Shown: piece after piece, positions 203-17,550 of the stretch
How the letters are laid out: every line of letters starts with the position of its first letter
Position numbering within the stretch: the first letter of the stretch is position 1
UHGV virus genome: UHGV-1455077
Direction: 5' to 3' (one strand)
Source: a virus
DNA: 64,000 bases
Position numbers and translations under genes: made by a program
Notes under the pieces: generated by a model
Seen by the model: only the letters and a program-made list of their open reading frames with translations
The model's database searches: none
Told to the model about the DNA's origin: nothing

Positions 203-232
203 AAAAGAGAGGTTTTAAAACCTCTCTTTAAT
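201..232. terminator. Bidirectional rho-independent terminator between the upstream + ORF and nrdD (-)
   Basis: Perfect palindrome AGAGAGGTTTT/AAAACCTCTCT flanked by A-run upstream and T-run downstream, so a U-tract on both strands. Confidence 0.6.
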
Positions 233-2371
233 TTATCCGTGTAACGAATCATCAATAAATGTTCTTCGTTGAAATTCCCAATTTCTTCTTGTTGGATTCC
301 AAGAATCTACTGGAACAAAGAAACCAACAACACGAGTAAAGTATTGCATATGTTCATTATGACCACATTTTGAACAACTTGCAACTTTATGGTCATAAAC
401 TGAACCACACTCTGGACATTTTGAATAAACAGAATTTAATACAAAATGTTCACAACCACATTTAATAGCATATAAAATAATTTTTCTATTTTGTGCCGCT
501 GTTGTTTTAGAACCTAATTGTGCGTGTACAATACCACCACCTGTTAATAACTGATTGTATTTTCCATCAGCTTCCAATTTTTCCCAAATAGTTGCATCTT
601 CCCATAATGGAACAAACTGATTGGCATATAATGGAGCATCAATTATATTATCATTGAAAATTAAATTATCAACTGTTGCCAATCTTACAGCATAGGATTC
701 TCCTGGAATCTGTTCAATATTAGAAAATAAACCTAATTCTTTTGCATATTCTTGTGAATGTTTATTTAAATAAACTAAATAATCATTCATTACATCCTGA
801 CCTTCTTTAATTTCATCAGAAAATTTAGTTTCAAGGATTTTTTTAGCTTCAACAACACCCAGAATACCAAATGTTGAGAATAATCTATCCATACGAATCC
901 AACCACGAGTAATAAATGGTTCAAGACCTTTAGCTTCCATTTTACCAATTAATACTTTATGAGCTTTTAAAACTTTTGCCGCACCACGAATTCTTTTATC
1001 TAAAATTTTATAGAAATCTTCCATTGAATTAGCTTCATATGCAATACGAGCAAAATTAATAGTTACAACACGATGTGAACCCATTGATACAGTTGAGCCA
1101 CCAAATGAATTAACTGTCGAACCCATATCTAATAATTCAGCATCATTAATTAAACGACAACAAGAAGCAACTTTTGTTCCCTTAGAAGTAAAAATATTGA
1201 ATCTTGTAATATCACGTTGGCAAACAAAATCAAAAAAGTTTTCATCTAAGATATTTCCATCATCATCTTTTGAAATATTCATAGTAGTAACAGGAAAACG
1301 ATATGGAATACCATTATTTAATGGGTCACCTTTTTCGTGGAATTTTGCATAAATTTCTTGTAATTCCATAATATAATTAATAACAAAATCTTTCCATTCA
1401 TCAGCAGACATTTTATCTTCTAATCCATTATCAAGAGCAATATCTTTTTTATTTGCAAAATACCATCCATAATTATCTGCACCAACTAAACCTGATAATT
1501 TTACTCTATCAAATAATGAAATATTAGTAAATGGAGATTCTACACCATTTCTCGACAAATGATTTACTGAATGAACAAATGTTTGAAAACAATTTTCAAT
1601 ATATTTTCTCATTGTTGGGTCATTTTTAACAACTTCAAATGGAACACGTTGTTTATAAATTAAAATATGTGCAATATCTAAGAAAAATGTTCCAACAGCA
1701 ATTGCACCTGCTAAATGAGAAGACATCTGATGTACAGTTTCATCTAATGCAGAAATATATGAATCAACACGATGAACAGGGGCAGATGGTAATTGACCGA
1801 ATTTACGACCTTCCATAACTAATTTAGAAGCATCTAATGCCCAACAATATGGAATTAAAATATTAGTTGAATCTGATAAGCCTAATGAAAAATCATATAA
1901 ATCACCAGATAATACTTTAGCTTCGGCTTGACCATATAAATCTTTCATTACTCCATAAAGCATATGATAACCAATCAATTTACGATTAGAAGCAGTAATT
2001 TCATTGTTTACGCCTGCAATTGTCTTTTCATTTTTATTTGAATTATCATCAATTGATACATCATTAACACGTGAATCTAAAATTTTTGCAAAGTTTGCCA
2101 ATGTATCAAAATTGGTAGCATCTAAACCGTGAATATTTAAAATTTTAGATGTTAATTCTTTTAATTCACCATTTGAAAATCCATATTTTTTCTTTAAAGC
2201 TGATGCTAAAGTTTTTTTAATATTTTTAATTGTTCGTGTTGTTTCCGCATTAATTAAAATATCGTCTGAAACTTTATCTAATTCTTTTTTAAAATCTTCA
2301 TCTTCATAGTAAGAATCCACAATAGTTGGACTCTTAACATTTAATATTTTTTTAACTGTCAAATCAGACAT
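233..2371 (-). CDS. nrdD: Anaerobic ribonucleoside-triphosphate reductase (class III RNR) NrdD
   Basis: 712 aa; C-terminal Zn ribbon CGCEH...CPECG and glycyl-radical motif TRVVGFF; AAGGAG RBS; ATG confirmed. Confidence 0.9.
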   Translation of the reverse strand: MSDLTVKKILNVKSPTIVDSYYEDEDFKKELDKVSDDILINAETTRTIKNIKKTLASALKKKYGFSNGELKELTSKILNIHGLDATNFDTLANFAKILDSRVNDVSIDDNSNKNEKTIAGVNNEITASNRKLIGYHMLYGVMKDLYGQAEAKVLSGDLYDFSLGLSDSTNILIPYCWALDASKLVMEGRKFGQLPSAPVHRVDSYISALDETVHQMSSHLAGAIAVGTFFLDIAHILIYKQRVPFEVVKNDPTMRKYIENCFQTFVHSVNHLSRNGVESPFTNISLFDRVKLSGLVGADNYGWYFANKKDIALDNGLEDKMSADEWKDFVINYIMELQEIYAKFHEKGDPLNNGIPYRFPVTTMNISKDDDGNILDENFFDFVCQRDITRFNIFTSKGTKVASCCRLINDAELLDMGSTVNSFGGSTVSMGSHRVVTINFARIAYEANSMEDFYKILDKRIRGAAKVLKAHKVLIGKMEAKGLEPFITRGWIRMDRLFSTFGILGVVEAKKILETKFSDEIKEGQDVMNDYLVYLNKHSQEYAKELGLFSNIEQIPGESYAVRLATVDNLIFNDNIIDAPLYANQFVPLWEDATIWEKLEADGKYNQLLTGGGIVHAQLGSKTTAAQNRKIILYAIKCGCEHFVLNSVYSKCPECGSVYDHKVASCSKCGHNEHMQYFTRVVGFFVPVDSWNPTRRNWEFQRRTFIDDSLHG

Positions 2372-3037: not shown

Positions 3038-3448
3038 CTAATTAAAATTTTTTATACTATCAATTAAAACTTGTGAAGTGATAACTTCTTTCAATCTTGG
3101 GTGTAAAGGTTTAGGTGGAAAATCAATATCTACCCACGCATAACCATCATTTTCGTGATTTAACTTTGGAATAAATTCATTATCAGTTAAAAGTAAAAAT
3201 GAATGATATTGAAATTTTTTATCCATAGACGTAAAACAATTAAATGCAATCCATTTATTAATCGGTGGTAAGAACCCAATTTCTTCTTCAATTTCTCTTT
3301 CAAGTCCTTCTAATAAAAATTCATCGTGGTGGACTTTTCCGCCAACTAAACCCCAACGAGAAGGATAAGAACTTATTGAACTTCTCAATAAGAACAAATA
3401 TCTATTTGTATTAACAGATTTAATTAATGCACCTGCCGATTTTATCAT
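3038..3448 (-). CDS. NUDIX hydrolase
   Basis: Nudix box GGKVHHDEFLLEGLEREIEEEIGF (GX5EX7REUXEEXGU); 136 aa. Confidence 0.7.
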   Translation of the reverse strand: MIKSAGALIKSVNTNRYLFLLRSSISSYPSRWGLVGGKVHHDEFLLEGLEREIEEEIGFLPPINKWIAFNCFTSMDKKFQYHSFLLLTDNEFIPKLNHENDGYAWVDIDFPPKPLHPRLKEVITSQVLIDSIKNFN

Positions 3449-3534: not shown

Positions 3535-4308
3535 ATGATAACTGACAATACTAAAGCTCGTGAAAAATTAGCAAATGATATATTAATAAGACTTGGTGAT
3601 ACAATGATTGATGTTGAATTATCACCACAGCAAATTCAAAAATGTATTGATTTAGCATTTGCAAAACTTAAACAGCAAGGTGATGCCTTTGTTGAAGAAT
3701 CATTAGTTTTATTAACTTTAAAGAAAAACCAAAAAGAATATATTCTTCCTGATGAAATAGTTGAAATTCAACAAATTTATCGTAGAAATTATGGAAGAAC
3801 ATATGGTTCTACTGGCGGTCAAAATATTGACCCATTCCAAATGGCTTGGACAAATGTTTATATGGCTGGTGCAATTAATGGAGTTAGAACAGGTGGTTTA
3901 GTAACTTATGAACTTCATAATGATTATTTAAAAACTGCTGGAAAAATGTTTGGTATGTATATCAATTACACTTTTAATGAAAACACACATAAATTAATTA
4001 TTGCTGAAAATCCCCGAGCTGATGATGAAGTTATTCTTCTTCATTCATATGTTGATAAGCCTGAATATGAATTAATTCAGGATAGATATGCTGGTTTATG
4101 GATAGAAAATTGGGCATTAGCTGAAGCTAAAGAAATTCTTGGAACAATTCGTAATCGTTTTGGTAATTTACCAGGGCCAAATGGTACTGTAACTCAAGAT
4201 GGAGCAGAATTAAAACAAGAAGCTAAAACTATGAAAGAAGAATTAACAAAAGAATTAATGAATTTTGTTCCAGGCGGAGATATTCCCTGTATGCCATTTT
4301 TAGGATAA
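3535..4308 (+). CDS. gp13: Neck protein, T4 gp13-like
   Basis: N-terminal ILIRLGDTMIDVELSPQQIQKCIDLAF resembles T4 gp13 [27 protein letters not shown] (recalled from memory); C-terminal region also similar; 257 aa. Confidence 0.5.
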   Translation: MITDNTKAREKLANDILIRLGDTMIDVELSPQQIQKCIDLAFAKLKQQGDAFVEESLVLLTLKKNQKEYILPDEIVEIQQIYRRNYGRTYGSTGGQNIDPFQMAWTNVYMAGAINGVRTGGLVTYELHNDYLKTAGKMFGMYINYTFNENTHKLIIAENPRADDEVILLHSYVDKPEYELIQDRYAGLWIENWALAEAKEILGTIRNRFGNLPGPNGTVTQDGAELKQEAKTMKEELTKELMNFVPGGDIPCMPFLG

Positions 4309-4314
4309 AATATA

Positions 4315-6117
4315 ATGAGATACAACCAAATATTAAATAAAACAATTAACAAATATAATAACTTCCTTTTTAATAAAATATTAAATGAAGGAATTGAAGA
4401 CATAAAAAAATATTTTCCAAAATTAGATGAAAAATCTTTACGTAAATTAATTTCTCTTGACCCAACTTATAAAGGCGGAGAACAATTAGGAAAATATGGT
4501 CAATGGATTATACGTTTATTCTATAATAATATAAAAAATATTGAGCGTAAAAAACAATTTAATGAATTATTACAACAATATCCAGATGGAATTAATCCTA
4601 AAACAGGTCAAAAATTTGAACAACCTAAAATGTTACCTGCTATTAAATCAGAAGATTTAGAAAAAATTCCAAATTCGTTAAAACAATATGAAATATATAA
4701 AAATAAAATTAAAAAGCCTATTGATTTATTTAAAACATTACCAGAATTAGATACGGAACTTGAAAAAATTAAATCATTAGGTATTCCAACAGATAAAAAA
4801 GTATTAGATAGATATAATCTTTTTGAAAAATATGCTGATAAAGGATTAAAGAAAATTTTTGAAAATGCTGATTGGATTATTGCAATTCCAACAAAATTAG
4901 AATGTTCAGTTCCATTTGGTGAATATACTTCTTGGTGTACAACATCACCTCACGGAAAATATTACTATTATTATTCTGATAAAGGATTATTATACATTCT
5001 TTTAAATAAGAAAACAGGGGAATTTTATCAATTCCACTTTGAAACTCAATCTTTTATGGATGCATCTGACAGTAGAATTAATATGGATACTTTTACAGAA
5101 AAATATCCTGACATTGCTAAATTTTTATTTAATTATCAAAAAGATTCTGTTGAAAATAAACCTTCACCTTTAATTCAACTACAAGAAACTTTTTCGGATT
5201 TATTAAAAAATCCAAATGAAATGAATAAAAGATTATTTCCATCAATTCATAATTTTAAAATTGAAGGAGATACAATAACAGGAACTATTGATTCATTTGA
5301 TGAGCTTGAAGATGTATATGATGATAATAGATATTCTATATCATTTGATTGGATTGATAAATTTATTCAAGACCCATATACTACTATAGATTTTCATCCA
5401 AGCTATTCCATTAGTGAAATCCAAAATATGTATATTGGTACCGATTGGGATAATTATGCCAAAAAAAATAATTTAAATATTTCTTTTGATGATTTATGTA
5501 CATTGGTAAGTATTTCTGATGAATTACCACAAAATCTTGAAACATTTTTAAATGAAGAATTTTCAGATTTAGGTGGATTTGTTGATACAGTTACCTCATT
5601 AGAAGAAACAGGAACAATAGATGAAGTTTTTAAACAGATTAAAGATTCTTTAGAATCGAATTTTCCAATATTTAAAAATATTGAATTTATAGATGATAAT
5701 ATTAAAATTTATTTAGAAATGCCTGTTCAATTTGCTTTTACTTATCTTGTTGTTGATAAATTAGGTTTAGATATTTTAGAAAAAGGAAATATTCCTTCTT
5801 ATAAAGAACCTATTCAACAGGAATTTAATTTTAATGAATCTAAATATAAATTTAAAGATGAATGGTATATGCAATGGGTTAAATATGATGACGATGATGA
5901 CCCTTGGGCATATAATGAAGAATATGAAAGAAATTGGTTATATGTTTATCGTTATTCTATAGATGATGGAAATGGTAAATTTAGTATTAGCGAATCAAAT
6001 TATAACTGGTATGGATTTGATGAGTCAGATTGGAAAATTATTTGTAACAATAGCACCGAAGAATTAAAACAATTAATTGGTGATAAAACATTACAAGATT
6101 TTATTAGTCAAGAATAA
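4315..6117 (+). CDS. Hypothetical protein, paralogue family A (SWCT motif family)
   Basis: 600 aa; shares N-terminal and central SWCT...LY.I.NK...DA(S/N)DS regions with minus-strand ORF 29307-31019. Confidence 0.5.
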   Translation: MRYNQILNKTINKYNNFLFNKILNEGIEDIKKYFPKLDEKSLRKLISLDPTYKGGEQLGKYGQWIIRLFYNNIKNIERKKQFNELLQQYPDGINPKTGQKFEQPKMLPAIKSEDLEKIPNSLKQYEIYKNKIKKPIDLFKTLPELDTELEKIKSLGIPTDKKVLDRYNLFEKYADKGLKKIFENADWIIAIPTKLECSVPFGEYTSWCTTSPHGKYYYYYSDKGLLYILLNKKTGEFYQFHFETQSFMDASDSRINMDTFTEKYPDIAKFLFNYQKDSVENKPSPLIQLQETFSDLLKNPNEMNKRLFPSIHNFKIEGDTITGTIDSFDELEDVYDDNRYSISFDWIDKFIQDPYTTIDFHPSYSISEIQNMYIGTDWDNYAKKNNLNISFDDLCTLVSISDELPQNLETFLNEEFSDLGGFVDTVTSLEETGTIDEVFKQIKDSLESNFPIFKNIEFIDDNIKIYLEMPVQFAFTYLVVDKLGLDILEKGNIPSYKEPIQQEFNFNESKYKFKDEWYMQWVKYDDDDDPWAYNEEYERNWLYVYRYSIDDGNGKFSISESNYNWYGFDESDWKIICNNSTEELKQLIGDKTLQDFISQE

Positions 6118-6193
6118 ATAAAATTAATATTGAAACAAATTTTATTTTAGATGTATAGTTTAAATAAAATTTTTGTGTGGGAAATTATAATTA

Positions 6194-8089
6194 ATGAAAA
6201 ATGTATATTTAAGTGATAAATATTTTACGAGCCTTGATGATTTTAATAAGGATTTGATTGCCCACAAGTCAAATTTCTTTAAAGATTATCAAGGCTTTCC
6301 TTTTATATCGCTTTTAAATGCTCTTTCATACAATACTGATTTCAATACAAAAAATTATCGCTGGGGAAAACGTTATTTCAATATGGATAATAAAGATTTT
6401 TGTTGGATAACATCCAATGAGAATAAAAAAATCAATAAATCATTTTGGAATAAAGATACTTTTTCATATGTTTCTAAAGAAATTAATGCATACTTTACAG
6501 ATGTCAATATTAAAGAACATTTTTTATCTTGTTTTAAGCCGCATAGAAAAATTAATTTCTTTTATAAATTATCAAAAAATGAACAAAATGAATTAAAAAA
6601 TTATTCAACATCTTTACAAAATTTATATATGGTATCTGATAAAACCTATGGCTCATCACAACAAATAGGAACAGATATTCTTTTAATTGATATTGATAAT
6701 TATGAAGATAGACACGCTTTAGAAACTTTAAATATGTTTTTAGATTTTGTTAATTTAAAAATTAATGATTTAATTTTTATCGAACAAAATGCATTTACAG
6801 GTGGAATTCACACCGCTTTGAAATTACCTCAAGTAATTTCAAACATAAATTTCTATCCAACTTTAATGAAAGAACTTCAAAAAAATGATATTCGCATAGA
6901 ATGTAATTTCATTAATACCATTTTACGATTTCCATTATCTTTTGAATATGTTGCTATTCAAAAAGATGAACGCATTTTAAATTATGATGAATTTATTCCA
7001 ACACAATTTTGGGAAAATACTTTTGCAGATTATTTAAATAATTTGAATGATAATGTATGTAATTCAAATTATTTAAATGATTTAATTCTTAAAACACATA
7101 ATTTACAACCTGTTAATATATGGGAAAATTATTGGAAAACAAAAAAGAATCTATTCAAAAAAAATCAATCTATTGTTTTTAATAATGAAATTTATAAAAT
7201 TGAAAAAGGCAAAAGATATGAATCAATGTCTAAAATTATTCCATATTGTAAACTTCAAGGAATGAGTTTAGATGAAACTGTCAATACCATATTTGATAAT
7301 AATATTGATTCAAAGGATTTATTGAAATGGTCAAGAGAAAAATTAAAGAAAAATATAGAAAAATTCTTTAATAAATGCCCCGAACAAGCATTTACAACCA
7401 TTAAGAATTATAATAAATCTTTTATTTCTAATTTAGAAAAATTACCAACAATAACTCAAGATTTCTTAAATAATAAAACTTTTAACGAATGGTTTACTAA
7501 CCGTTTTATTAAATTCTATATGAAAGAAAGAAATAAACATAATAATTCTTTTAATTCTTTCTCAACTGAAAAAATAGAAATCTTAAATAAGCAGATACCT
7601 TATTTCTTAAAAGAAATAATTGGTAAAATGTTTTATGAAATTAATACAAATAAAGAATTTATTAATGAAGAATTTAATGTCGTATTGGGTTTTCAAATAT
7701 CTGACACCTATTTAAAAGCTCTACAAGAGCAATCAATTAGTGATTTAGGATTATCTGGTGCATTAGCTAAAACATCATTACAATACCTTAAAAAAGCTCT
7801 TATTAAAGCATTATCATTAACAGAAATTAAATATAAAAATAGAACAAGAAATTGGATGTTAGGTTCTTGTAAGTCATTTCGTATTAAAAACACAAATGAT
7901 TTATACAATCTATTAAACCATCTATTTAGAAGCTGTTTTAATAATATATATAATAAAGAATTTAGAATAAACAAATCTGAATTAAATAATTTACTTATTT
8001 TATATATACAACTCGTTGAAAAATATGACATTGTGCAGTATGATGAAGTAAATTTTATAATTGAAGCTATTCCAAAATATGAAACTTAA
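6194..8089 (+). CDS. Hypothetical protein
   Basis: 631-aa ORF with ATG start; no recognisable motif. Confidence 0.5.
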   Translation: MKNVYLSDKYFTSLDDFNKDLIAHKSNFFKDYQGFPFISLLNALSYNTDFNTKNYRWGKRYFNMDNKDFCWITSNENKKINKSFWNKDTFSYVSKEINAYFTDVNIKEHFLSCFKPHRKINFFYKLSKNEQNELKNYSTSLQNLYMVSDKTYGSSQQIGTDILLIDIDNYEDRHALETLNMFLDFVNLKINDLIFIEQNAFTGGIHTALKLPQVISNINFYPTLMKELQKNDIRIECNFINTILRFPLSFEYVAIQKDERILNYDEFIPTQFWENTFADYLNNLNDNVCNSNYLNDLILKTHNLQPVNIWENYWKTKKNLFKKNQSIVFNNEIYKIEKGKRYESMSKIIPYCKLQGMSLDETVNTIFDNNIDSKDLLKWSREKLKKNIEKFFNKCPEQAFTTIKNYNKSFISNLEKLPTITQDFLNNKTFNEWFTNRFIKFYMKERNKHNNSFNSFSTEKIEILNKQIPYFLKEIIGKMFYEINTNKEFINEEFNVVLGFQISDTYLKALQEQSISDLGLSGALAKTSLQYLKKALIKALSLTEIKYKNRTRNWMLGSCKSFRIKNTNDLYNLLNHLFRSCFNNIYNKEFRINKSELNNLLILYIQLVEKYDIVQYDEVNFIIEAIPKYET

Positions 8090-8188
8090 ATAATAACTTA
8101 AAAAATTGATTGACATAATTAAAAATATATGATTTATTGTAAAAAAAGTAACAATGAATGAGTTTTATAATGTTTAGAGGAAATTAAT

Positions 8189-8446
8189 ATGTCTTTTTTA
8201 AGTTTTGTAATTTTATATTTTTTAATTGGTTTGGTAGCTATTGGCATTATGTATATATGCGATGAGGATAATTTGTTAAATATAAGAAATGATAAAGTTC
8301 TTCAAGAAAGTTTATTTTTAACTTATATATTTTGGATAGTTTTCTTTTTGATATATTTATTATATGGTTTTGTAGGTCGTTTTATGAGATGGTATATAAA
8401 TTTGTTGGAAAATATATGTATAAGAAAAAATAATTTGAAAAAATAG
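8189..8446 (+). CDS. Small membrane protein (2 predicted TM helices)
   Basis: 85 aa; hydrophobic segments FLSFVILYFLIGLVAIGIMYI and IFWIVFFLIYLLYGF. Confidence 0.35.
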   Translation: MSFLSFVILYFLIGLVAIGIMYICDEDNLLNIRNDKVLQESLFLTYIFWIVFFLIYLLYGFVGRFMRWYINLLENICIRKNNLKK

Positions 8447-8494: not shown

Positions 8495-8860
8495 ATGTCT
8501 TTAAATAAAGAAATTTTAACATCAATTTTAAAAGAAAATATTTGTGATGTAACATTTACAAAGAAAGATGGAACAGAGAGGGTGATGAAATCAACATTAA
8601 TGGAAGAATATGTTAAGCCATTACTTACACCATCTGATACTAATGATACCAAAACTGAACGTAAAGAAAATCCAAATCAGGTTAGAGTTGTTGATTTAGA
8701 GAAAAAGGCGTGGAGAAGTTTTAATGCTGATACAGTTAAAGGTATAACTTTGACAGAGATTGTTAATGAAGGTGTGGCTTCTATTGATTCAACACAAGAA
8801 ACTGATAAACCTTTAACAGATAATACATCTGATGAAAATATATTAATGGAAGCAAAATAA
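8495..8860 (+). CDS. Hypothetical protein
   Basis: 121 aa; AGAGGAG RBS 7 nt upstream. Confidence 0.5.
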   Translation: MSLNKEILTSILKENICDVTFTKKDGTERVMKSTLMEEYVKPLLTPSDTNDTKTERKENPNQVRVVDLEKKAWRSFNADTVKGITLTEIVNEGVASIDSTQETDKPLTDNTSDENILMEAK

Positions 8861-9154
8861 ATGAAATTAGCGAATTTAAAATTATATCAAATTCGTAAGT
8901 TGCCTGAATGTTATTGGGTTCAACATCCAATGCAGTTAGGTGGAACTAAAGAAACAAATAACGCAAAATATATTAATGCTACAATATTTCAATTAAATAA
9001 TGAAAATATATTATATGGAATGAAACATTATATGTTATATGATGAAGACCATATTTTTACAGAATTACAAGAAGCTATAGATTATTGTACTGAAAATGGA
9101 TGGGTTTATCATCTTAAAGAAAATTATAATTATAAAGGATTAGAGAATGGTTAA
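8861..9154 (+). CDS. Hypothetical protein
   Basis: 97 aa; start abuts previous stop. Confidence 0.4.
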   Translation: MKLANLKLYQIRKLPECYWVQHPMQLGGTKETNNAKYINATIFQLNNENILYGMKHYMLYDEDHIFTELQEAIDYCTENGWVYHLKENYNYKGLENG

Positions 9155-9821
9155 AATAATTGAACCAAGTGTTGAAATCGTAAGTGAAATTAATTCGGAT
9201 AAAATGTTAAAACAGATTGAAAAATGTGTCAGAAATTGTTATAAATCTGAAAATAATATTACTGAAGATACAACATCTGCTGTTAAAATGATTGGTAAAT
9301 TGATTGAAATGGGTCATACTGCAATGATTGAATTTGCTGATGTTATTGTTAATCTTCATTGTGATGTTGGTGTTTATAAAGATTTAACACGTCATCGTCA
9401 TTGCAGTTTTGCTATTGAATCTACAAGATATTGTAATTATTCTAAAGGTAAATTTGGAAATGAAATTTCTGTAATTAAACCTTGTAATATGGATGAAAAT
9501 TCTGGAATTTATCATACTTGGCTTAAAGCAATGAATGATATGGAAAGAGCATATATGCAGATGGCAGAAATTGGTGCAACACCTGACCAATTAAGAATGA
9601 TTCTTCCACACAGTACAGCCGCAAGTGTAATGATGAAAGCTAATATTAGAGAATGGCGACATATTTTTAATTTAAGATGTGCTAAAGCGGCTCATCCATC
9701 TGTTAGACAGATTATGCTTATGACTTTAAATGAATTTCATAATAAAATTCCAGTTTTATTTGATGATTTATATGAGCAATTTAAATTTGATATTGATGAT
9801 GTAAATAATAAAAAAGATTGA
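9147..9821 (+). CDS. thyX: Flavin-dependent thymidylate synthase ThyX
   Basis: ThyX signature LTRHRHCSFAIESTRY (RHRx7S...RY) and GHTAMIEFA region; 224 aa. Confidence 0.85.
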   Translation: MVKIIEPSVEIVSEINSDKMLKQIEKCVRNCYKSENNITEDTTSAVKMIGKLIEMGHTAMIEFADVIVNLHCDVGVYKDLTRHRHCSFAIESTRYCNYSKGKFGNEISVIKPCNMDENSGIYHTWLKAMNDMERAYMQMAEIGATPDQLRMILPHSTAASVMMKANIREWRHIFNLRCAKAAHPSVRQIMLMTLNEFHNKIPVLFDDLYEQFKFDIDDVNNKKD

Positions 9822-9831
9822 CAAATTAAAT

Positions 9832-9865
9832 AAAGTGTGATATTGTAGTATCACACTTTATTTTT
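9832..9865 (+). terminator. Rho-independent terminator after thyX
   Basis: 11-bp perfect stem AAAGTGTGATA/TATCACACTTT, 6-nt loop, then TTTTT. Confidence 0.75.
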
Positions 9866-9877
9866 AGGAAAAAAATT

Positions 9878-11224
9878 ATGAAATTTAATGATTATTTTAA
9901 ATTAAAAGATATAACGGTAAATGTTACAAATTCTTGTAATTTAAATTGTGTATATTGTTTTGAACATAATAAAAATGGAATGAAAATGTCTTCTGAAATG
10001 ATTGAAAAAATCATTGATGTTAGCTATAATAATTATTTAATAACAAATGAAACTAAATTTCCATTTGTTGTTAATTTTTTTGGTGGAGAACCATTTTTAG
10101 CATTTGATGTTATGGAACACGCTATGAAATATGCAAAAAATAAAAAATATCGTATTTCTTTTGGTGTTACAACTAATTTAACAATGCTTACAGACCATAT
10201 GATTGATGTTATTGAAGATTATGAGTTAGGTTTATTGGTATCTGTTGATGGAATAAAAAAAATACACGATAGAAATAGATGTAATTCTTATGATATTGTT
10301 ATGTCAAATTTAAATAAATTGATTGACCGAGGATTAAAGCATTTAGTTGAAGTTAGAATGACAGTTATGCCTGCTGATTTGAAAGATTTATTAACAGGTA
10401 TACAAGAATTATATAATATAGGAATTGATAATATTGCTCCTGTTCCAGTAACTGATACTGAATGGACAGATGCTGATTATATGAATTTACGAGATGAAAT
10501 GCATAAAATTTGGGAATGGGCATTTTCAATTTATAATGATGAAAATAATAAAAGAAATTTATCATTAAAATGTATTGATGATTATTTAGAAATGGTACTA
10601 AATCCAATCTTTTTAGTACCAGACCAACGAAAAGTTTGTACGGCTGGAACATTTTCTTCTTGTTCATTTGGTGTAACTGGGGATATTTTACCTTGTCATC
10701 AACGTCATACTATTTCAGACCATTATGATGAGTTAGTAATGGGCAATATTAATAATACTGATGAGATTAGAGAGGTTAATTTCAATAAACAAACAATTAT
10801 GAATGAAAATCATAATTGTGATGTATGTAATGCAAGAGCTGTATGTAAAGGTGGCTGTCCATCGGAAAATCTTACATTAAATAACGATGGTAATGTAATG
10901 AATGATGTTCAATGTAATGTATTAGCTTATATGGTTGATGTTGCAGAACAATTTCAATGGTATTTAATTAATGATAAAATTCCTAACATTCGTTCAAGAA
11001 AATTAAATATATTAAGTCAAAATGTTAAATTGTTAGACCATATAACAGATATTTTGCTAAATGAAAGAAGCATTAGGGAAAATGAGATTGAATTATTAAA
11101 ATTTTATGAAACTTTGGTTGATATGGAAGGAATTTTATTACCAAGTTTTAGAGAAGCTATAAATTATACTATTTCCCAGATGGTAAATATTATTGATGAA
11201 CAAATTAAAAATGAAGGTGTATAA
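9878..11224 (+). CDS. Radical SAM enzyme with C-terminal SPASM domain (rSAM-1)
   Basis: CNLNCVYC (CxxxCxxC) at aa 20-27; GGEPFL; C-terminal Cys clusters C..C..C / CDVCNARAVCKGGC typical of SPASM. Confidence 0.85.
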   Translation: MKFNDYFKLKDITVNVTNSCNLNCVYCFEHNKNGMKMSSEMIEKIIDVSYNNYLITNETKFPFVVNFFGGEPFLAFDVMEHAMKYAKNKKYRISFGVTTNLTMLTDHMIDVIEDYELGLLVSVDGIKKIHDRNRCNSYDIVMSNLNKLIDRGLKHLVEVRMTVMPADLKDLLTGIQELYNIGIDNIAPVPVTDTEWTDADYMNLRDEMHKIWEWAFSIYNDENNKRNLSLKCIDDYLEMVLNPIFLVPDQRKVCTAGTFSSCSFGVTGDILPCHQRHTISDHYDELVMGNINNTDEIREVNFNKQTIMNENHNCDVCNARAVCKGGCPSENLTLNNDGNVMNDVQCNVLAYMVDVAEQFQWYLINDKIPNIRSRKLNILSQNVKLLDHITDILLNERSIRENEIELLKFYETLVDMEGILLPSFREAINYTISQMVNIIDEQIKNEGV

Positions 11225-12042
11225 TGGCTGATAGTAATATTGTTAATAGACAAGTTTATCAAGATATTCGTGATACTTTTAAACAAAGAGCAATGAATTG
11301 GAATGGTGTATGGAAGGTATGGACAAATCAATCTCCTGATTGGGGTGGTCGTTGGGTATATGGATGGAAAGGAGTAAGAATCCAAATGTATGATACTATT
11401 CCAGAATCTGTCCGTGATAAAATTCAAAAAGAATATACTGGATTATCGGGTGAAGTTAATCAAGTTATTAATGAAGAATCTTCAAAAATTCATACTTTAG
11501 GAAATGAAAATAATATTAGAAGGGCTGTAATTCAATTAAATAATACAACTGATGCAAATATTGGTGTATATATTGGAAGTGAAAAATTACCAAAAATTGA
11601 AGTTAAAACTATTGGTACTGCTGGTAATTTTAATCCAGATGTTAATATTGCTAATACTTCTGATGATTATACTGTTAATAAATACAATACTTCATATGTT
11701 AGAGATATTCCAGCCAATAAAATTGTTAATACAACAACAGGACAGGAAGTTCCTTTAAATGCTGTTATCACTAAGGATATTAATCAAAAAACTCAAATGG
11801 AAGGTTCAACAAATCCAACTGAATCATCTCAAGCAGAAGGTATTGTTAAAAAATCTGATTATGAATTAATAAGAAGTGTATTAGAAAGAATTAAAGATTG
11901 TTTGATTCAAAAGAATTCTTGGTTTACTTATAATGGGATTTGTAGCCGTAGTTGTCAAATTAATTGTCAAAATAGATGTCAAGTAAGTTGTCAAGGTTGT
12001 AATACAAAACAATGTCACGACCAAAATTGTGGGAGTGTTTAA
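11224..12042 (+). CDS. Trp-rich protein with a CxxxC-periodic Cys-rich C-terminal tail (candidate rSAM substrate)
   Basis: 272 aa; TAATG overlap with rSAM-1; last 32 aa CSRSCQINCQNRCQVSCQGCNTKQCHDQNCGSV. Confidence 0.6.
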   Translation: MADSNIVNRQVYQDIRDTFKQRAMNWNGVWKVWTNQSPDWGGRWVYGWKGVRIQMYDTIPESVRDKIQKEYTGLSGEVNQVINEESSKIHTLGNENNIRRAVIQLNNTTDANIGVYIGSEKLPKIEVKTIGTAGNFNPDVNIANTSDDYTVNKYNTSYVRDIPANKIVNTTTGQEVPLNAVITKDINQKTQMEGSTNPTESSQAEGIVKKSDYELIRSVLERIKDCLIQKNSWFTYNGICSRSCQINCQNRCQVSCQGCNTKQCHDQNCGSV

Positions 12043-12045
12043 TTT

Positions 12046-13242
12046 ATGGAATTATTTGAAAAAATTACACGTATTGCAGTTAAACTTTATTCAGGTTGCA
12101 ATATGAAATGTTGTTATTGCTTTCAACCATATAATGATAAAATTAAACCACGAATTTTTTCTGATTATGATAATTTATATAAATTTGTTAAATCTTTGCC
12201 GTTATCTGATATTGTAATTGTTACATTAGTTGGTGGAGAGGTAACATTAAGACCTGATTTAGTAAAACTTTGTATTAAAAAAGTATTTAAAAGAATTGAG
12301 AGAGAACAAGATGTAACTTTTCATTGTGCAACTATTTCCAATGGAACTAATTTAGATATTTTACTTGATTTATGTAATGAAAATTATTTTTATTCTAAAC
12401 ATTGCTGTATTTCTTGGGATGGTTTATTTTCATCAAGTTTATCAAGAAAGATAAATGGAAAATATGATGATGAATATTTTAAAAATATGATACTACAATT
12501 GGGTAAATCTGAATACAATGATAAAATTTCCATAGTTCACGCTTTAACACCTGAAACTTTACCATATTTGGCTGATAGTTTTAAGTTTTGTTTTGATAAT
12601 AATGTTTTAAGTTTGGGTTATTATTATATTCACGAAGCAAATTATAATAGTGATTATATATATAAAGAATTTGAAAAACAAATTAGAAAAATTTGTGATA
12701 TGTATATTCAAAATGATAAAATTAATTTTTATAATTGGGTTAATTATTTTCAACGAAGAAGAAATCCTGATAATTTTTTTACTTGTGTAAAATTAGGAAA
12801 TAATTATTTTATTAATCCAGAAGGAGAAATTTATCCTTGTATTTATTTAGGAGACCATAAAGCATATAACCTTGGTAATATTAAAGATGGAATTGATTTA
12901 AATAAACAAAATGAATTTGTTAAGGAATATTATCATTATCCATTATGCAAATATAAAACTTGTAAATGTTATCAATGTTCTGAATGTCCTGCGGCTAATT
13001 ATGTTAATAATGGAAGTTTACATAAAAGATTTGAAGGGGCGTGTGAATTATATAAAATTGAAAATAAAGTTTTTGAAGAATATTATGAAAAAATAAAAAA
13101 TAATATAATGTTTAATAATGAATATTTAAATGAAATGTTGCCAACTTATGATTTGAATAAATTTACTGAATGTGATTTTGAATTTCATTATTCAGAATCC
13201 AAATCTCCAAATTTGAATATTGTTCAACAATGGAATAAATGA
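12046..13242 (+). CDS. Radical SAM/SPASM enzyme (rSAM-2)
   Basis: CNMKCCYC cluster; GGEVTL; C-terminal CKYKTCKCYQCSECPAAN SPASM-like Cys cluster. Confidence 0.85.
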   Translation: MELFEKITRIAVKLYSGCNMKCCYCFQPYNDKIKPRIFSDYDNLYKFVKSLPLSDIVIVTLVGGEVTLRPDLVKLCIKKVFKRIEREQDVTFHCATISNGTNLDILLDLCNENYFYSKHCCISWDGLFSSSLSRKINGKYDDEYFKNMILQLGKSEYNDKISIVHALTPETLPYLADSFKFCFDNNVLSLGYYYIHEANYNSDYIYKEFEKQIRKICDMYIQNDKINFYNWVNYFQRRRNPDNFFTCVKLGNNYFINPEGEIYPCIYLGDHKAYNLGNIKDGIDLNKQNEFVKEYYHYPLCKYKTCKCYQCSECPAANYVNNGSLHKRFEGACELYKIENKVFEEYYEKIKNNIMFNNEYLNEMLPTYDLNKFTECDFEFHYSESKSPNLNIVQQWNK

Positions 13243-13243
13243 A

Positions 13244-14401
13244 ATGAAGAAAACAACTTTACCGCCAATGATAAATCATTGTTTTTTGATGTTATCTGAA
13301 CAATGTAATTTAAGATGTAAGTATTGTTATATTCAAGGGAGAGATAATCCATATACTATTGATATTTCGGTAATGGAAAAAATTAAAAAAATGTTTACTT
13401 GCTATAATAAGCCACGAATTATATTTTTTGGTGGAGAACCATTATTAAGAGTGAATTTAATTAAAGAAATTGTTAAAAAATATAAAGATGATTTTCAATA
13501 TCAAGTTGTTACAAATGGAACAGTAAATTTTAATGAATTTATGGATGAAGTATATCAACCATTTAATCATATTTTTGATGTTCAAATTTCGTGGGATGGT
13601 AATATTGATACTCGTAAATCTGTAACTAATAAGATTACAAATAATATTGTATATGATAATATTATTACTCAATTAAAAAAAGGGTATAGATTAGAAGGAA
13701 GATGTGTTTTAGATGAAACATCAGTAAAAAATTTTTTTGAAACTTACAAAATATTTAAAGATTTACATCATACATATAAATTTAGTGGAGATTTTACAAT
13801 AGCTCATCAGCCCCAATTTAAAGAATCATATTGGAATGATTTGGAAGTTCAATTAAATTTGATTTTTTCTGATATTAAAAATAATTTAGTTAATGATAAT
13901 AAAATTTATATTCCACGATTTTTATATAAAAACATTACTAATGTTATTGAAAATAAGCCAGTAATATCTTGTGATGTTGGAAATTATGTTGTTATCCGTC
14001 CAAATGGAGATATATATCCTTGTACTATTTTATCGCAAATAGATGAAAGATTTAAAATGGGGAATATCAATGATGAAATTGATACAGAAATTATAGACGA
14101 TTTAAAATATAAATCATCTTGTAAAAAAGAATGTGAATATAAATCTATATGTGATGGTGGTTGTCGTTATGAAAGAATAAAAAATTTTTCAAATAGTTGG
14201 AAAGAAAATATATGCCCATTTACTTGTGAAATTTATAAGGTTATTTATGAATGTACAAACAAATTTTTAAATTCATTAGATGCTGACCAACAGAATAAAT
14301 TGTATGAACTGATTACTCAATATAATTTATGGAGTATTGATTATTGTAATGGTAGTTCAAAATTAAATAAAGATGACGGAATGATAAAATTAAATGTATA
14401 A
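13244..14401 (+). CDS. Radical SAM/SPASM enzyme (rSAM-3)
   Basis: ATG at 13244, 1 nt after rSAM-2 stop (the ORF track starts at an upstream TTG); CNLRCKYC cluster; GGEPLL; C-terminal CKKECEYKSICDGGC. Confidence 0.85.
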   Translation: MKKTTLPPMINHCFLMLSEQCNLRCKYCYIQGRDNPYTIDISVMEKIKKMFTCYNKPRIIFFGGEPLLRVNLIKEIVKKYKDDFQYQVVTNGTVNFNEFMDEVYQPFNHIFDVQISWDGNIDTRKSVTNKITNNIVYDNIITQLKKGYRLEGRCVLDETSVKNFFETYKIFKDLHHTYKFSGDFTIAHQPQFKESYWNDLEVQLNLIFSDIKNNLVNDNKIYIPRFLYKNITNVIENKPVISCDVGNYVVIRPNGDIYPCTILSQIDERFKMGNINDEIDTEIIDDLKYKSSCKKECEYKSICDGGCRYERIKNFSNSWKENICPFTCEIYKVIYECTNKFLNSLDADQQNKLYELITQYNLWSIDYCNGSSKLNKDDGMIKLNV

Positions 14402-14428
14402 ATAATTTATATATTTTAAGGAAATAAA

Positions 14429-15571
14429 ATGATAATTTTTATGCCAGAACGTGTTTATGAATATTTTAAAAATGATGATTTTTTAAATGAAAAAATTAAA
14501 GAAATTAGTAATAAAGTTTATAATGAATCTCAACATTATGATTTAAAAAATTTTTTAAGTATTGATGAACATATTTTTGATGAAGTTAATCAATATATGT
14601 TGAATAATGTTTCAGATGAATTGCGTGATGAATTAAATATTTGCTTAAATGGTTATAATCAAAAAGCTAATTTATTTGCTAAGAATATTGAAAAATATGA
14701 TATTGAAACTCAAATATATTTAATGTATATGCTTAATGATGGAGATATGAGTCCGTCAGAAGATTTATTTAATAGATATAAACGAATTAATGAATTATAT
14801 GAACAAAATGATTTAAATTTTTCGGCTTTTATACATACCATTTATTATTTTACAAATTTATATTTACAATGGGTTGATAGTGATAATTTGAAAAAAATTA
14901 ATGAAAATGGATTTTTTTCATATCAAGAAGTGAAAAAAATGTTAAGCTATGAAGATACATTATTTTCTAAAATGAAAAATAAAGTAAATTCTGAACAATA
15001 TTTTAATATTTTATTTCATAAACGAATTCAAATGATGTATCTTTTTATGTTGTTTATTGGACAATTTAGTGAAAATTTTGATGATGTCGTTGAATTAATT
15101 ATTAGAAAAATTTATGATAATAGATTTAAATATGATAATTTTAATTATTTAAAATTGGCAATTAATCATATCTTTTTTCAAACATATTTTGATAAAGGAG
15201 ATTTTACTAAAGCTAAGAAATATTTAATGTATAATATATCTATGATTAATTATGGATTTGCTCATAAATTTGAAATGGTTAAAGCATTAAACCATTTTAA
15301 TAAGATTTTTAGTAAAGAATTTTGTAATTATTTGTTTTTCTTATATACAATGATTCGTGTTTATATTCCAAGTTTACAAAAAGAATTTAATATTTTAAAT
15401 AGTGAAAATGCCACGGAATTTGAAAAGAGATTGTTATTTGGTAAATTGCAAGATGATGAAAAAATGTTCGGTTTAGATTTAAATCCAAATGAATGGTTAT
15501 CTTTTAAATGGTGTCAACTTAATAAAAGTTCGTTTGATTATTTTAATAAAAATGTTGACAATTTATCTTAA
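14429..15571 (+). CDS. Hypothetical protein
   Basis: 380-aa ORF immediately downstream of the rSAM operon. Confidence 0.5.
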   Translation: MIIFMPERVYEYFKNDDFLNEKIKEISNKVYNESQHYDLKNFLSIDEHIFDEVNQYMLNNVSDELRDELNICLNGYNQKANLFAKNIEKYDIETQIYLMYMLNDGDMSPSEDLFNRYKRINELYEQNDLNFSAFIHTIYYFTNLYLQWVDSDNLKKINENGFFSYQEVKKMLSYEDTLFSKMKNKVNSEQYFNILFHKRIQMMYLFMLFIGQFSENFDDVVELIIRKIYDNRFKYDNFNYLKLAINHIFFQTYFDKGDFTKAKKYLMYNISMINYGFAHKFEMVKALNHFNKIFSKEFCNYLFFLYTMIRVYIPSLQKEFNILNSENATEFEKRLLFGKLQDDEKMFGLDLNPNEWLSFKWCQLNKSSFDYFNKNVDNLS

Positions 15572-15583
15572 ATAATTTATAAT
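15555..15583 (+). promoter_or_regulatory. Sigma70-type promoter TTGACA-N17-TATAAT upstream of the DNA ligase gene
   Basis: TTGACA at 15555-15560, 17-nt spacer, TATAAT at 15578-15583; ATG at 15616. Confidence 0.6.
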
Positions 15584-15615
15584 CTTCATAAAAAATAATT
15601 TATGGAGATTTTTTT

Positions 15616-17550
15616 ATGAAAACTTTAATTGATATTTTAAGAGTTTGTTCTGATTATTATACAAATACAGGCGATTACTATATTTTTGATGATGAAGATA
15701 AACTAATTTTACAAGAATATGGTATTGAAGCAGATATTTCAACAGATGATGTATATGATAGTTTATATGATATTGGAAAAAAGTTTTATCCTAATGATAT
15801 TTTCTTTTTGTCTATTGGTTCTGAAGTTAGAGGTGATAAAGTTAAATTGCCAATACCGCTTGGTTCAATGACAGAATGTAAAGAAGATGAACTATTAAAA
15901 TGGATTTCTCCGAATGAAAAATATATGGTATCAGCTAAATTAGATGGATGCTCTTGTTTATGTTGTTATGAAAATGGACAGTTAAAAATTGCTTATTCTC
16001 GTGGTGATGGAGAAAATGGGCAAGATATTACTCGCATTATTAACACTTTTGAAAATTCGATTACTTCTTTAAAAATTCCTGATAATGTTATGATACGTGG
16101 TGAAGTTATTGTTTCTAAAGAAAATATTCCATTGATGATTGATGAATTATATAAAGAAACTCATTATCGTTATAAAAATGGTCGTAATACTGTTGCTGGT
16201 CAATTAAACTCAAAAGTGTGTGCAAAAACATTTTCAAAATATGCCCATTTTGTAGCTTATAAAATTATGAATTTTAATGGTTCAGAAGAAGAAATGTTTC
16301 AAAAACTTGAAGAATATGGTTTAGAAACGGCACAACATTCAATGGTTGATGGTCAGTATGTAACCGAACAAAGTGCTAAATTAGGTGTTCAATCAGTTAG
16401 AGATGACTATGAATATGAATGTGATGGAATTATTTTTACTGTTAATCGTAAATCTGAAAATTATAATGGTTATGAAACAAGTACATATAATCCAAAGGAA
16501 TCTCGTAAATTTAAAGTTGGAGCAGTAGTTAATTCTGCTGAAACCGAAGTAGAATTTGTTGAGTGGAATGTTTCTAAAAATGCTTTGTTAAATCCACGCA
16601 TTAAAGTTAAACCAGTAGATATTAATGGTGTAACTATTGATTGGGTAACTGGACATAATTATAAAAATATTGTTGATAATAAAATCGGTCAAGGTGCAAA
16701 GATTGTAATTACTCGGCGTGGAGATGTTATACCATATGTTGAAAAAGTTATTTCTCCGTGTGAAGAAGATAAGTTAGGAATTCCAACAATTGACCGTTCA
16801 ATGTGGGATACAACAGAAAATGGTGTATTTGCATTTTATTATGAAGGAACTAATGATGAATTAGATAGAATTGTTTCTTTACAACGATTAGTATACTTTT
16901 GTAATAAATTAAATGTTAAATTTGCTGGAGAAGGTAATTTAACAAGAATTATGAATTTTACTGAATTAAATACAATGAGTCCTTATAATTTAATTAATTT
17001 GCCTGCATCAGTTTTTACACAAACTATTGGAATTAATGGAATTAAATTATATGCTTCTTTACACGAGTGTCTTAAAAAAGCAACAATTCAGCAATTAATG
17101 GATGCTGTTGGAGCATTTGGTGATGGTATTGGTGAACTTAAACTTAATAGAATTGTTGACACTTATGGTGAATTAATATATGATAGAGATAAAATTATGC
17201 AGGTTGATGGTTGGTCGGATATTTCAGCAGACCAATATTGTTCAAGATATGCAGTTTATTTGAATTGGTGTGAGAAATTTCGTTCATCTGGAATTGAATT
17301 AAAGTATGCAGAAGTTCAAATTCAATCTGAAAAATTTAAAAATATTATTGCTTGTTTTACTGGGATTAGAGATAAGGAAATGGAATATAATATTGTTTCG
17401 GGTGGCGGAAAAATTGTAACATCTGTAACAAAAATATGTAATTTGTTAATTACAAAAGAAAATAATAGCACTTCATCAAAAGCTGAAAAAGCAAGAGAAA
17501 AAGGTATTGAAATCATTTCTTATGATGAAGCTGTAAAAAGATTTAAATAA
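15616..17550 (+). CDS. ligA: NAD-dependent DNA ligase (LigA type, with HhH and BRCT)
   Basis: Adenylation motif KLDG and LigA motif SRGDGENGQDIT; C-terminal BRCT-like region; 644 aa. Confidence 0.8.
   Translation: MKTLIDILRVCSDYYTNTGDYYIFDDEDKLILQEYGIEADISTDDVYDSLYDIGKKFYPNDIFFLSIGSEVRGDKVKLPIPLGSMTECKEDELLKWISPNEKYMVSAKLDGCSCLCCYENGQLKIAYSRGDGENGQDITRIINTFENSITSLKIPDNVMIRGEVIVSKENIPLMIDELYKETHYRYKNGRNTVAGQLNSKVCAKTFSKYAHFVAYKIMNFNGSEEEMFQKLEEYGLETAQHSMVDGQYVTEQSAKLGVQSVRDDYEYECDGIIFTVNRKSENYNGYETSTYNPKESRKFKVGAVVNSAETEVEFVEWNVSKNALLNPRIKVKPVDINGVTIDWVTGHNYKNIVDNKIGQGAKIVITRRGDVIPYVEKVISPCEEDKLGIPTIDRSMWDTTENGVFAFYYEGTNDELDRIVSLQRLVYFCNKLNVKFAGEGNLTRIMNFTELNTMSPYNLINLPASVFTQTIGINGIKLYASLHECLKKATIQQLMDAVGAFGDGIGELKLNRIVDTYGELIYDRDKIMQVDGWSDISADQYCSRYAVYLNWCEKFRSSGIELKYAEVQIQSEKFKNIIACFTGIRDKEMEYNIVSGGGKIVTSVTKICNLLITKENNSTSSKAEKAREKGIEIISYDEAVKRFK

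Follow-up and report, generated by a model that had tools for sequence, protein, structure and literature searches.

What use would a bacteriophage have for a protein that ends in a regular ladder of cysteines and is encoded among several radical S-adenosylmethionine (rSAM) enzymes? The question is raised by the viral genome UHGV-1455077, of which a stretch of 64,000 nucleotides (nt) was analysed; this whole stretch is called the window below, and coordinates refer to it unless a related locus (designated L001 and so forth) is named. The gene in question, T (11224..12042, plus strand), codes for a protein of 272 residues in which a variable middle is set between a conserved helix at the N terminus and a conserved module at the C terminus. 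Since the conserved tail lies inside a block of one to five rSAM genes in every related phage examined, it most likely represents a protein-borne, cross-linked peptide akin to the SCIFF peptides and ranthipeptides.

The cysteine ladder and its conservation

T ends in CSRSCQINCQNRCQVSCQGCNTKQCHDQNCGSV, its final 33 residues, encoded together with the stop codon by positions 11941..12042 of the plus strand; the first TGT of the tail begins at 11941, and the stop codon occupies 12040-12042. The tail Cys are residues 240, 244, 248, 252, 256, 259, 264 and 269, with the spacing C-x3-C-x3-C-x3-C-x3-C-x2-C-x4-C-x4-C, and Gln directly follows four of the five Cys of the period-4 run. C226 is the sole Cys of T outside the tail, and only 16 residues follow the five-Cys run. 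An earlier note on this DNA had described the open reading frame (ORF) with its eight-Cys tail, the strict period of four for five Cys followed by spacings of two, four and four, and the frequent C-Q-x-x repeat, all of which agree with the translation. Its description of the upstream part as Trp/Asn-rich holds in part for Trp, six of the seven being found within residues 26-48, and barely for Asn (10.9% versus 8.6% in the window proteome).

In the window proteome (about 20,100 residues with a Cys content of 1.6%), chance would produce 2e-5 runs of five Cys at period 4, and the T tail is the sole run of at least four period-4 Cys across the six frames of the 64 kb; a chance origin of the pattern is excluded. 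All tail Cys codons are TGT and all Gln codons CAA (11941-12030), so that a TGTCAA hexamer recurs at a 12-nt period on the DNA, a periodicity that fits the codon bias of a window with 25% G+C and not a DNA-level repeat. A repeat artefact was rejected, as the pattern is kept at the protein level among sequences only 28% identical.

The Cys/Gln core is the second half of a C-terminal module of 64 residues, composed of a helix, a W-[FW]-D-x-N-G turn and the core itself. In T, the first half (residues 209-239; 11848..11940, plus strand) consists of an amphipathic helix and a W-F-x-x-N-G turn. No match to T was found in Pfam, NCBIfam or PHROG scans, and its public copies are labelled 'hypothetical protein [Myoviridae sp. 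ctWb16]'. In 15 close homologues (28-99% identity), all eight Cys, H265 and four Gln are invariant, and an alignment of 75 diverse modules contains nine invariant positions and six more with a conservation of 90% or higher. Near-invariance extends to eight Cys, one His and five Gln, while the rest of the protein gets replaced, the core Gln giving way occasionally to Met, Glu or Leu. The core consensus reads C-x-[RLI]-[ST]-CQ-[VTI]-x-CQ-x-x-CQ-[LVI]-[SA]-CQ-x-C-x3-[QT]-CH-[ND]-Q-x-CG, preceded by the amphipathic helix and the W-[FW]-D-x-N-G turn, and throughout the family this helix/turn half is conserved jointly with the Cys core, also in members whose remaining sequence differs. The Cys period, on which the earlier note had built its proposal, is kept in the 15 homologues, and the tail, far from being missing in orthologues, is better conserved than any other part of the family.

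When 1.84 billion representative proteins were searched with a profile, 121 protein clusters gave a T-family match, most of them over the last 60-70 residues only and nearly always at the extreme C terminus; in P0033, P0114 and P0117, the tail is absent and the match concerns the N-terminal or middle part only. The shortest family protein has 71 residues and the longest 950. Of the 131 sequences retrieved, 99 have exactly the spacing C3C3C3C3C2C4C4C, with one to five residues after the last Cys. Variants comprise a seven-Cys form without Cys 6, a three-Cys short form (...CQRSCQINCQTxVQKS) and rare forms with 14, 15 or 37 period-4 Cys. With regard to distribution, IMG/VR yielded 122 confirmed module hits, mostly on contigs of 100-280 kb. 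Among 185,579 prokaryotic species representatives there were three, located on a contig of 283 kb and on two short ones from metagenome bins, which have the look of phage DNA binned by mistake. The module is viral in essence and almost exclusive to large uncultured phages. Public metagenomes commonly contain its genes. For three family proteins, the clusters at 90% identity comprise between 260 and 1,062 sequences, located on contigs as long as 293 kb, and all members with a name are labelled as hypothetical proteins.

Two or three T paralogues are present per cassette in L034, L041, L049 and L065. In the two of L034 (9306-10508 and 10524-11642), the five-Cys run, CVVGCQVNCQSTCQLTCQ, is internal, and an additional domain of about 125-150 residues ending in CxxC comes after it in place of the usual C-terminal end. 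In L041, a Gly-rich paralogue of 521 residues (6630-8195) is found near the canonical T gene, with the last two Cys replaced (…CQYYTAHNQNSGGWV), and may be a decaying or specialised copy.

The radical-SAM cassette

In the window, T is the second gene of a block ordered A-T-B-C-F1 on one strand (9878-15571). The rSAM-A gene (9878..11224, plus strand; 448 residues; Pfam Radical_SAM, E 1.4e-16) lies directly upstream of T, its stop codon overlapping the T start (TAATG). A 3-nt gap separates T from rSAM-B (12046..13242, plus strand; 398 residues), which overlaps by 23 nt with rSAM-C (13220..14401, plus strand; 393 residues from a TTG start, the true start of which may be slightly downstream). After a further 27 nt comes F1 (14429..15571, plus strand), a cassette protein of 380 residues conserved in relatives. 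No terminator-like site was found within 9000-16000. Pfam Radical_SAM is matched by all three enzymes, and Pfam SPASM above threshold by B and C. Like thioether-forming rSAM enzymes in general, A, B and C each combine a CxxxCxxC core motif (at residues 20, 18 and 29, respectively) with the Cys of SPASM auxiliary clusters, for instance CDVCNARAVCKGGC at residue 314 of A and CKKECEYKSICDGGC at residue 301 of C.

F1 has no Pfam, NCBIfam or PHROG match, and a PDB profile search returned only insignificant TPR/PPR-like matches (E >= 0.04). Since hhalign finds no relation to the rSAM enzymes, a degenerate rSAM was rejected; F1 is possibly a scaffold or chaperone.

For comparison across relatives, ORFs were called at all loci, an iterated hidden Markov model (HMM) was built from the three window enzymes, and paralogue groups were defined by clustering the enzymes on normalised BLAST score. 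Many loci are near-duplicates, and clustering of T at 70% identity reduces them to 24 groups. Where both flanks are available (72 loci), one or more rSAM-SPASM genes always share the strand of T, their number per locus being one in 2 loci, two in 12, three in 10, four in 38 and five in 10. An rSAM of 406-798 residues precedes T in each of the 80 loci for which 2 kb or more of upstream sequence is available, at a distance of less than 150 nt in 64 of them; in the L013 lineage (16 loci), an ORF of 140 residues stands between the two, with a gap of about 434 nt. Among 22 distinct full-tail lineages, group A is found in 22 and at least one further rSAM in 20. In 23 representative loci, the groups are distributed as A in 23, B in 20, C in 21, D in 7, E in 5 and F in 2, and F1 is present in 18, sometimes twice. 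Group A is always upstream of T and adjoins it in most lineages, and B and C usually come after T, together with F1. The earlier note had proposed that the tail is the target of the flanking rSAM enzymes. With a same-strand rSAM-SPASM gene in 72 of 72 loci and A always upstream, the tail of T is very probably their target.

Some cassettes contain inteins or homing-endonuclease genes. In L003/L004, inteins (Intein_splicing, LAGLIDADG_3, Hint) are present in the group A and group B genes (5615-8011 and 9096-11330; products of 798 and 744 residues), and the two largest upstream rSAMs carry inteins. L086 has an enlarged B of 557 residues (from 8211). In L005, one or two HNH_3 homing-endonuclease genes lie between T and the downstream rSAM genes (9254-10961), and ORFs homologous to them (BLAST family F12) occupy the same position in L033, L043 and L051.

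The set of enzymes varies with the type of tail. Next to three-Cys short tails, A is the only enzyme, and B, C and F1 are all missing within 9-10 kb (L089 and L094; three short contigs agree). L094 was the one usable short-tail locus added by a metagenome scan, and IMG/VR scans with P0038 and with alignment A5 gave no further ones. Tails ending in CGxH go with A-B-C-D in seven of eight lineages, the exception being L002 = L098, a 15-kb contig on which A alone is seen; D is absent from all 14 lineages with other endings. Within the family nearest to the window, D is present in the relatives with a His-ending tail (L001, L003 and L086), and neither the His nor D is found in the window clade, in L011 or in L099. 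In seven lineages, tails ending in CGGWS or CGGFS are associated with four or more rSAMs (A, C, E or a second B, and B; or A-F-A...C-B). Seven other lineages, including that of the window, end in CGSV, CGSI, CGTS, CGMS and the like, and have at most three rSAMs and no D. These correlations are uncorrected for shared ancestry. The earlier note had suggested that different enzymes may act on different parts of the tail, and what the three-Cys tails with A alone and the CGxH ends with D provide is correlative: they support such a division of labour and do not prove it. The series of tail variants with matching enzyme sets (A only; A-B-C; A-B-C-D; A-C-E-B) constitutes a ready-made design for assigning enzyme sites.

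Resemblance to thioether-forming systems

Which chemistry might these enzymes perform? For each of them, the best NCBIfam model is NF047865, the PapB ranthipeptide maturase (A 193.8, C 104.3 and B 84.7 bits; cutoff 340). The second-best model for rSAM-A is QhpD (TIGR03906; E 9e-39, 133 bits, cutoff 453). The SCIFF-maturase model TIGR03974 gives 118, 40 and 64 bits for A, B and C (cutoff 425), with matches that start at model position ~85-100. In the PDB, CteB (5WGG) is the best match of A (E 3.7e-22, residues 9-353 against CteB 96-442) and of C (E 1.1e-13), and the sole match of B (E 2.6e-7). All three alignments begin at CteB residue 96-99, past its RiPP recognition element (RRE; domain layout per PMC8326336), RiPP standing for ribosomally synthesised and post-translationally modified peptide. 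Because they start there, and because the CxxxCxxC motif lies at residues 18-29, the phage enzymes are devoid of an RRE. PapB, QhpD and the SCIFF maturase all make thioethers between Cys and a side chain; in the case of QhpD, the sulfur is attached to the C-beta of Asp and the C-gamma of Glu, and in that of NxxcB to the C-beta of Asn (PMC8326336).

The core itself resembles that of SCIFF peptides. SCIFF (PF13165) is the sole Pfam family matched repeatedly by the modules (6 of 75; best E 0.0013, about 18 bits, cutoff 27); TIGR03973 reaches at best E 0.035, and the window tail itself has no SCIFF match, even at E up to 10 in one scan and up to 1 in another. Real SCIFF peptides were fetched, 25 of them aligned, and their profile compared with that of the module using hhalign, which returned a probability of 90.3% and an E-value of 1.5e-6 over 26 columns. 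The score of 31.5 was reached by none of 100 column-shuffled controls (mean 10.3, maximum 21.2), so the match reflects an ordered pattern and not composition alone. It covers SCIFF columns 20-45 only, not the leader, and places phage Cys 1-4 and 6 on SCIFF C24, C28, C32, C36 and C43. The thioether of SCIFF runs from C32, the donor, to the gamma carbon of an acceptor Thr, either Thr37 or Thr34 (PMC8326336). In the hhalign register, Thr37 falls on the conserved Gln after phage Cys 4. This register, the near-invariance of the Gln and the alternation of Gln and Thr at core position 24 point to the Gln, together with the Gln/Thr at position 24, as the likeliest acceptors in the phage tail.

Three known systems offer points of comparison. 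SCIFF and CteB share with the phage system a core C-x3-CQ-x2-CQ-x2-C... in common register, the architecture of the enzymes (rSAM plus SPASM, CteB being the nearest solved relative of A, B and C) and an occurrence in anaerobes. However, SCIFF is a free peptide of about 46 residues from Clostridia, with an MKHIKTLN leader and six Cys, whereas the phage core, which lacks that leader, contains eight Cys (variants have from 3 to 37 or more) and forms part of proteins 71-950 residues long. CteB is a single enzyme with an N-terminal RRE, whereas the phage enzymes come as one to five paralogues per cassette without one. The phage tail thus has the Cys-rich core register of a SCIFF, but neither the score of the curated model nor the free peptide with its leader, and its enzymes lack both an above-cutoff maturase score and the RRE.

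Freyrasin is the second system, PapB (NF047865), the maturase of PapA, being the best model for A, B and C. It contains a row of small in-line thioether rings in six CxxxD units, the topology proposed here for the T tail. The two differ in acceptor (Asp, compared with the proposed Gln/Thr), in spacing, in the nature of the substrate, which is a protein in the phage, and in that the phage enzymes score 84-194 bits, below the cutoff of 340. Freyrasin is classed as a ranthipeptide (PMC8326336). The third system, QhpC/QhpD, has thioethers on a non-RiPP protein, as is proposed for the phage one, and QhpD ranks as second-best model for rSAM-A; it differs in its unrelated substrate, its place in a bacterial respiratory system and its single enzyme. 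The target of QhpD is the small gamma subunit QhpC. This rSAM-SPASM enzyme forms Cys-to-Asp/Glu thioethers in quinohemoprotein amine dehydrogenase, a non-RiPP enzyme and not a released peptide (PMC8326336). The phage system appears to work like SCIFF/CteB, freyrasin/PapB and QhpC/QhpD, and by curated models it is a member of none of them; of their defining features, it has only the Cys register of the SCIFF core.

A C-terminal period-4 Cys run beside rSAM/SPASM maturases is also seen in the bacterial CXXX-repeat targets (TIGR04114, TIGR04117 and PF27846, with TIGR04115 and TIGR04119), for which only comparative-genomics knowledge was found in the literature. TIGR04119, the CXXX repeat peptide maturase, matches B weakly (36.3 bits, cutoff 150), and TIGR04115 matches A and C (81.7 and 41.6 bits, cutoff 350). 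On the target side, the many-repeat variant P0131 gives E 0.07 with TIGR04117 and a faint PF27846 signal, P0014 gives E 1.1 with TIGR04114, and the window protein gives no match. The phage module differs by its fixed five-Cys run, its C-x2-C-x4-CH-x-Q-x-CG end and the conserved helix before it. Membership of T in the CXXX-repeat family was rejected, since targets and maturases all score below cutoff.

The earlier note had looked instead to sactipeptides. In this explanation, the Cys sulfurs would be joined to alpha-carbons of the preceding amphipathic helix, giving a helical hairpin like that of thuricin CD, whose donor spacing is CxxxCxxxC, as in the tail. Sactipeptides such as thuricin CD and subtilosin A are made by rSAM-SPASM/twitch maturases, and rSAM-SPASM enzymes are common to both peptide classes; further, the helix before the Cys run is conserved, with Leu/Ile at module positions 12, 15 and 19, and AlphaFold2 predicts a helix, a turn and a helix. 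With the 75-sequence module alignment, the model comprises a helix at module positions 2-21 (predicted local distance difference test score, pLDDT, ~95), a second one at 35-46 over Cys 2-4 and a small hairpin at 49-58. With a 16-sequence alignment of T, long confident helices were predicted at residues 9-33, 92-112 and 210-228 (predicted template modelling score 0.67), the tail being unconfident. However, sactipeptide maturases are more distant from the phage enzymes: RumMC reaches 66.5 bits (cutoff 720) and StsB 20-46 bits (cutoff 625), far below the 194 bits of PapB, and the sactisynthase SkfB is barely detected in the PDB search (E 5e-4, rSAM-C only), where CteB is top for all three. Maturases of the AlbA, TrnC, RumMC or StsB type and the two arms of a hairpin core are accordingly not what the cassette displays, the 16 residues past the five-Cys run being too few for the acceptor arm of a thuricin-type hairpin within the tail. 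Nor would this model account for the Gln found almost invariably behind each Cys, and sactipeptides are free bacteriocins. Thuricin CD has three C-alpha bridges (PMC8326336). Such a staple is unlikely here, and the analogy is not the closest one, A, B and C being nearest to CteB, PapB and QhpD and the core aligning with SCIFF.

A different rSAM chemistry on T is slightly less probable still; formylglycine or dehydroalanine formation of the kind performed by anaerobic sulfatase-maturating enzyme (anSME), epimerisation, C-methylation, and C-C or C-N cross-links with Gln, His or Trp would all fall under this heading. AnSME is the second-best PDB match of rSAM-A (E 3e-8), the sulfatase maturase model matches A and C, and up to five paralogues per cassette suggest more than one reaction type. 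That D goes with a terminal His, and additional enzymes with a terminal Trp/Phe, hints at links other than thioethers. Against this, the closest enzymes, CteB, PapB and QhpD, are all thioether-forming, the eight invariant Cys fit a donor role, and the core aligns with that of SCIFF. We regard Cys thioether cross-linking as rather likely to be the modification, and give the non-alpha (ranthionine) type even chances.

Proposed role of T and its genomic setting

What kind of protein, then, would carry such a tail? From lineage to lineage, T keeps its two ends and exchanges its middle, the N-terminal end being a helix followed by an N-P-containing motif. In some close homologues, a CBM_5_12 or F5/8-type-C domain is inserted in the middle, and the domains recorded in the family are Gly_rich_2 (8 of 108), ALK_LTK_GRD (2), CBM_5_12 (3) and F5/8-type-C (2). 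Family members match PHROG 'tail protein', 'tail fiber' and 'minor tail protein' families, and fibre- or adhesin-like neighbour genes are found in some lineages. A fibre or adhesin scaffold is reasonable but unproven, and that T is a virion surface protein seems possible, if somewhat short of probable.

Taken together, the explanation that we narrowly favour is that of a fibre- or adhesin-like phage protein with a tail stapled by thioether rings. The A-T-B-C-F1 block would be a phage-borne maturation operon with T as its protein substrate, and the last 64 residues of T would act like a RiPP precursor grafted on a full-size protein. The helix and the W-[FW]-D-x-N-G turn may serve as the recognition element in place of a leader, the enzymes having no RRE, and the 30-residue core C-x3-CQ-x2-CQ-x2-CQ-x2-CQ-x-C-x4-CH-x-Q-x-CG would be a longer relative of the SCIFF core. 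Enzymes of the CteB/PapB/QhpD type would take a side-chain hydrogen from the acceptor and join that carbon to a Cys sulfur, giving a row of small non-alpha thioether (ranthionine-type) rings. Enzyme A could form the first CxxxCQxxCQ rings, B and C could act on the distal Cys, and the extra paralogues D and E of other lineages on lineage-specific ends (CGxH, CGGWS). We can propose that T is a surface-exposed fibre or adhesin scaffold, with conserved ends and a swappable middle binding domain, whose stapled tail, made within an anaerobic host, would be rigid and would withstand proteases and redox changes. The modification would probably stay on the protein.

An alternative would be a released RiPP, in which the N-terminal part of 240 residues is an oversized leader or carrier and a core of about 33 residues is cut off to act as a signal, toxin or anti-defence factor. 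The likeness to SCIFF, a free peptide, and the leader-plus-core-like layout of the module would suit it, and F1, which has no assigned function, could be the protease. However, no protease or exporter family was detected in the cassette, and N-terminal parts of 71 to 950 residues with carbohydrate-binding and fibre-like domains make no sense for a leader. The conservation of both ends of T around a swapped middle, and the internal position of the five-Cys run in L034, with another domain after it, also argue against release, which we consider improbable. Least probable of all is a tail left unmodified, binding metal or Fe-S (for example along a trimeric axis) or forming disulfides after release, with the rSAMs linked otherwise or using it as an electron or cluster partner. 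Metal or Fe-S binding had been raised in the earlier note, and an unmodified tail would fit the invariance of eight Cys and one His and the extended, coiled-coil-like module model, but the tail has no ferredoxin CxxCxxCxxxCP motif and one CxxC pair only. Nor would this model account for the way in which tail length and ending vary with the set of rSAMs, for the conserved Gln, for the SCIFF-like register or for adhesin-type domains on an Fe-S carrier.

Several points weigh against the stapled-fibre explanation. The virion role is its weakest step: T of the window is without a recognisable fibre domain, and its neighbours ThyX and DNA ligase belong to nucleotide metabolism. Full tails are found in L002/L098 and L009 with only A within the available 8 kb, so that B and C are not obligatorily adjacent, and the division of labour draws on few lineages, which are phylogenetically non-independent. 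All HMM scores against named families are below curated cutoffs. The choice of Gln is based on conservation and one 26-column profile alignment, and Gln is absent from the thioether acceptors that have been reviewed, namely, Thr, Asp, Asn and, for QhpD, Asp/Glu (PMC8326336). AlphaFold2 confidence in the core is moderate (pLDDT 70-82 through the helical core, 54 at the end), no fold relative was found, and PDB sequence searches with profiles A1 and A2 returned nothing. Moreover, a tblastn search with T and two other family members gave no match in 50,697 GenBank phage records, and no cultured phage with the gene was found.

Radical-SAM thioether chemistry is known for small secreted peptides and one bacterial enzyme subunit; we found no record of it for phage proteins, nor any description of a phage Cys-ladder system in the literature. 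What appears to be new is the use of a SCIFF-like core as a C-terminal tag on phage proteins, served by multi-paralogue maturases that lack an RRE. In its fullest version, the proposal is of a phage-exclusive system in which up to five rSAMs each write part of a thioether ladder on a portable 64-residue tag of virion fibre or adhesin proteins, and this remains tentative. If true, a radical cross-link installed by enzymes would, to our knowledge, be described for the first time in a structural protein of a virus. Gln would be a new thioether acceptor, and recognition would be leader-like without an RRE. Large phages of anaerobes would carry their own multi-enzyme protein-stapling machinery. The helix and core would form a natural modular C-terminal tag accepted on diverse cargo by RRE-less maturases, which is attractive for protein engineering, and the system would offer a tractable handle on the unresolved purpose of SCIFF-type cores.

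With regard to the genome, the window belongs, by its gene content, to a T4-like myovirus. A PHROG head-tail adaptor match is found at 3535-4308, its counterpart in related loci having Pfam Phage_T4_gp13, and gp23 and a prohead protease are found in relatives. The minus strand carries the genes for the anaerobic ribonucleotide reductase NrdD (233-2371), its activase NrdG (2404-2919) and a NUDIX hydrolase (3038-3448). NrdD and NrdG point to an anaerobic host, which fits the oxygen-sensitive rSAM chemistry. Two ORFs of 600 and 631 residues (4315-6117 and 6194-8089), without family match, are conserved upstream of the cassette in relatives, and are followed in the window by a WYL_2 (Sm-like SH3) protein (8495-8860) and the flavin-dependent thymidylate synthase ThyX (9147-9821, plus strand). 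The order NrdD, NrdG, NUDIX ... WYL_2, ThyX, rSAM-A, T is kept in L089.

A sigma-70-like scan of the window gave fewer sites than shuffled sequence, and two matches are to be taken as leads only: TTGACA, 17 nt and TATTGT, with a TG, upstream of rSAM-A (9818-9846), and a perfect TTGACA, 17 nt and TATAAT upstream of the ligase gene (15555-15583). The latter gene, directly after F1 (15616-17550), codes for an NAD-dependent LigA-type DNA ligase with a BRCT domain. The same position is occupied by an ATP-dependent ligase (DNA_ligase_A_M) in L001 (13518-14825) and L003 (14802-16139), with homologous ORFs in L011 and L086, which looks like a non-orthologous replacement. In L069, a gene resembling the RNA-polymerase beta subunit (102-1331, minus strand; phrog_2962, E 4e-72) lies just upstream of the cassette, and this lineage of ~240-kb phages may thus encode its own RNA polymerase.

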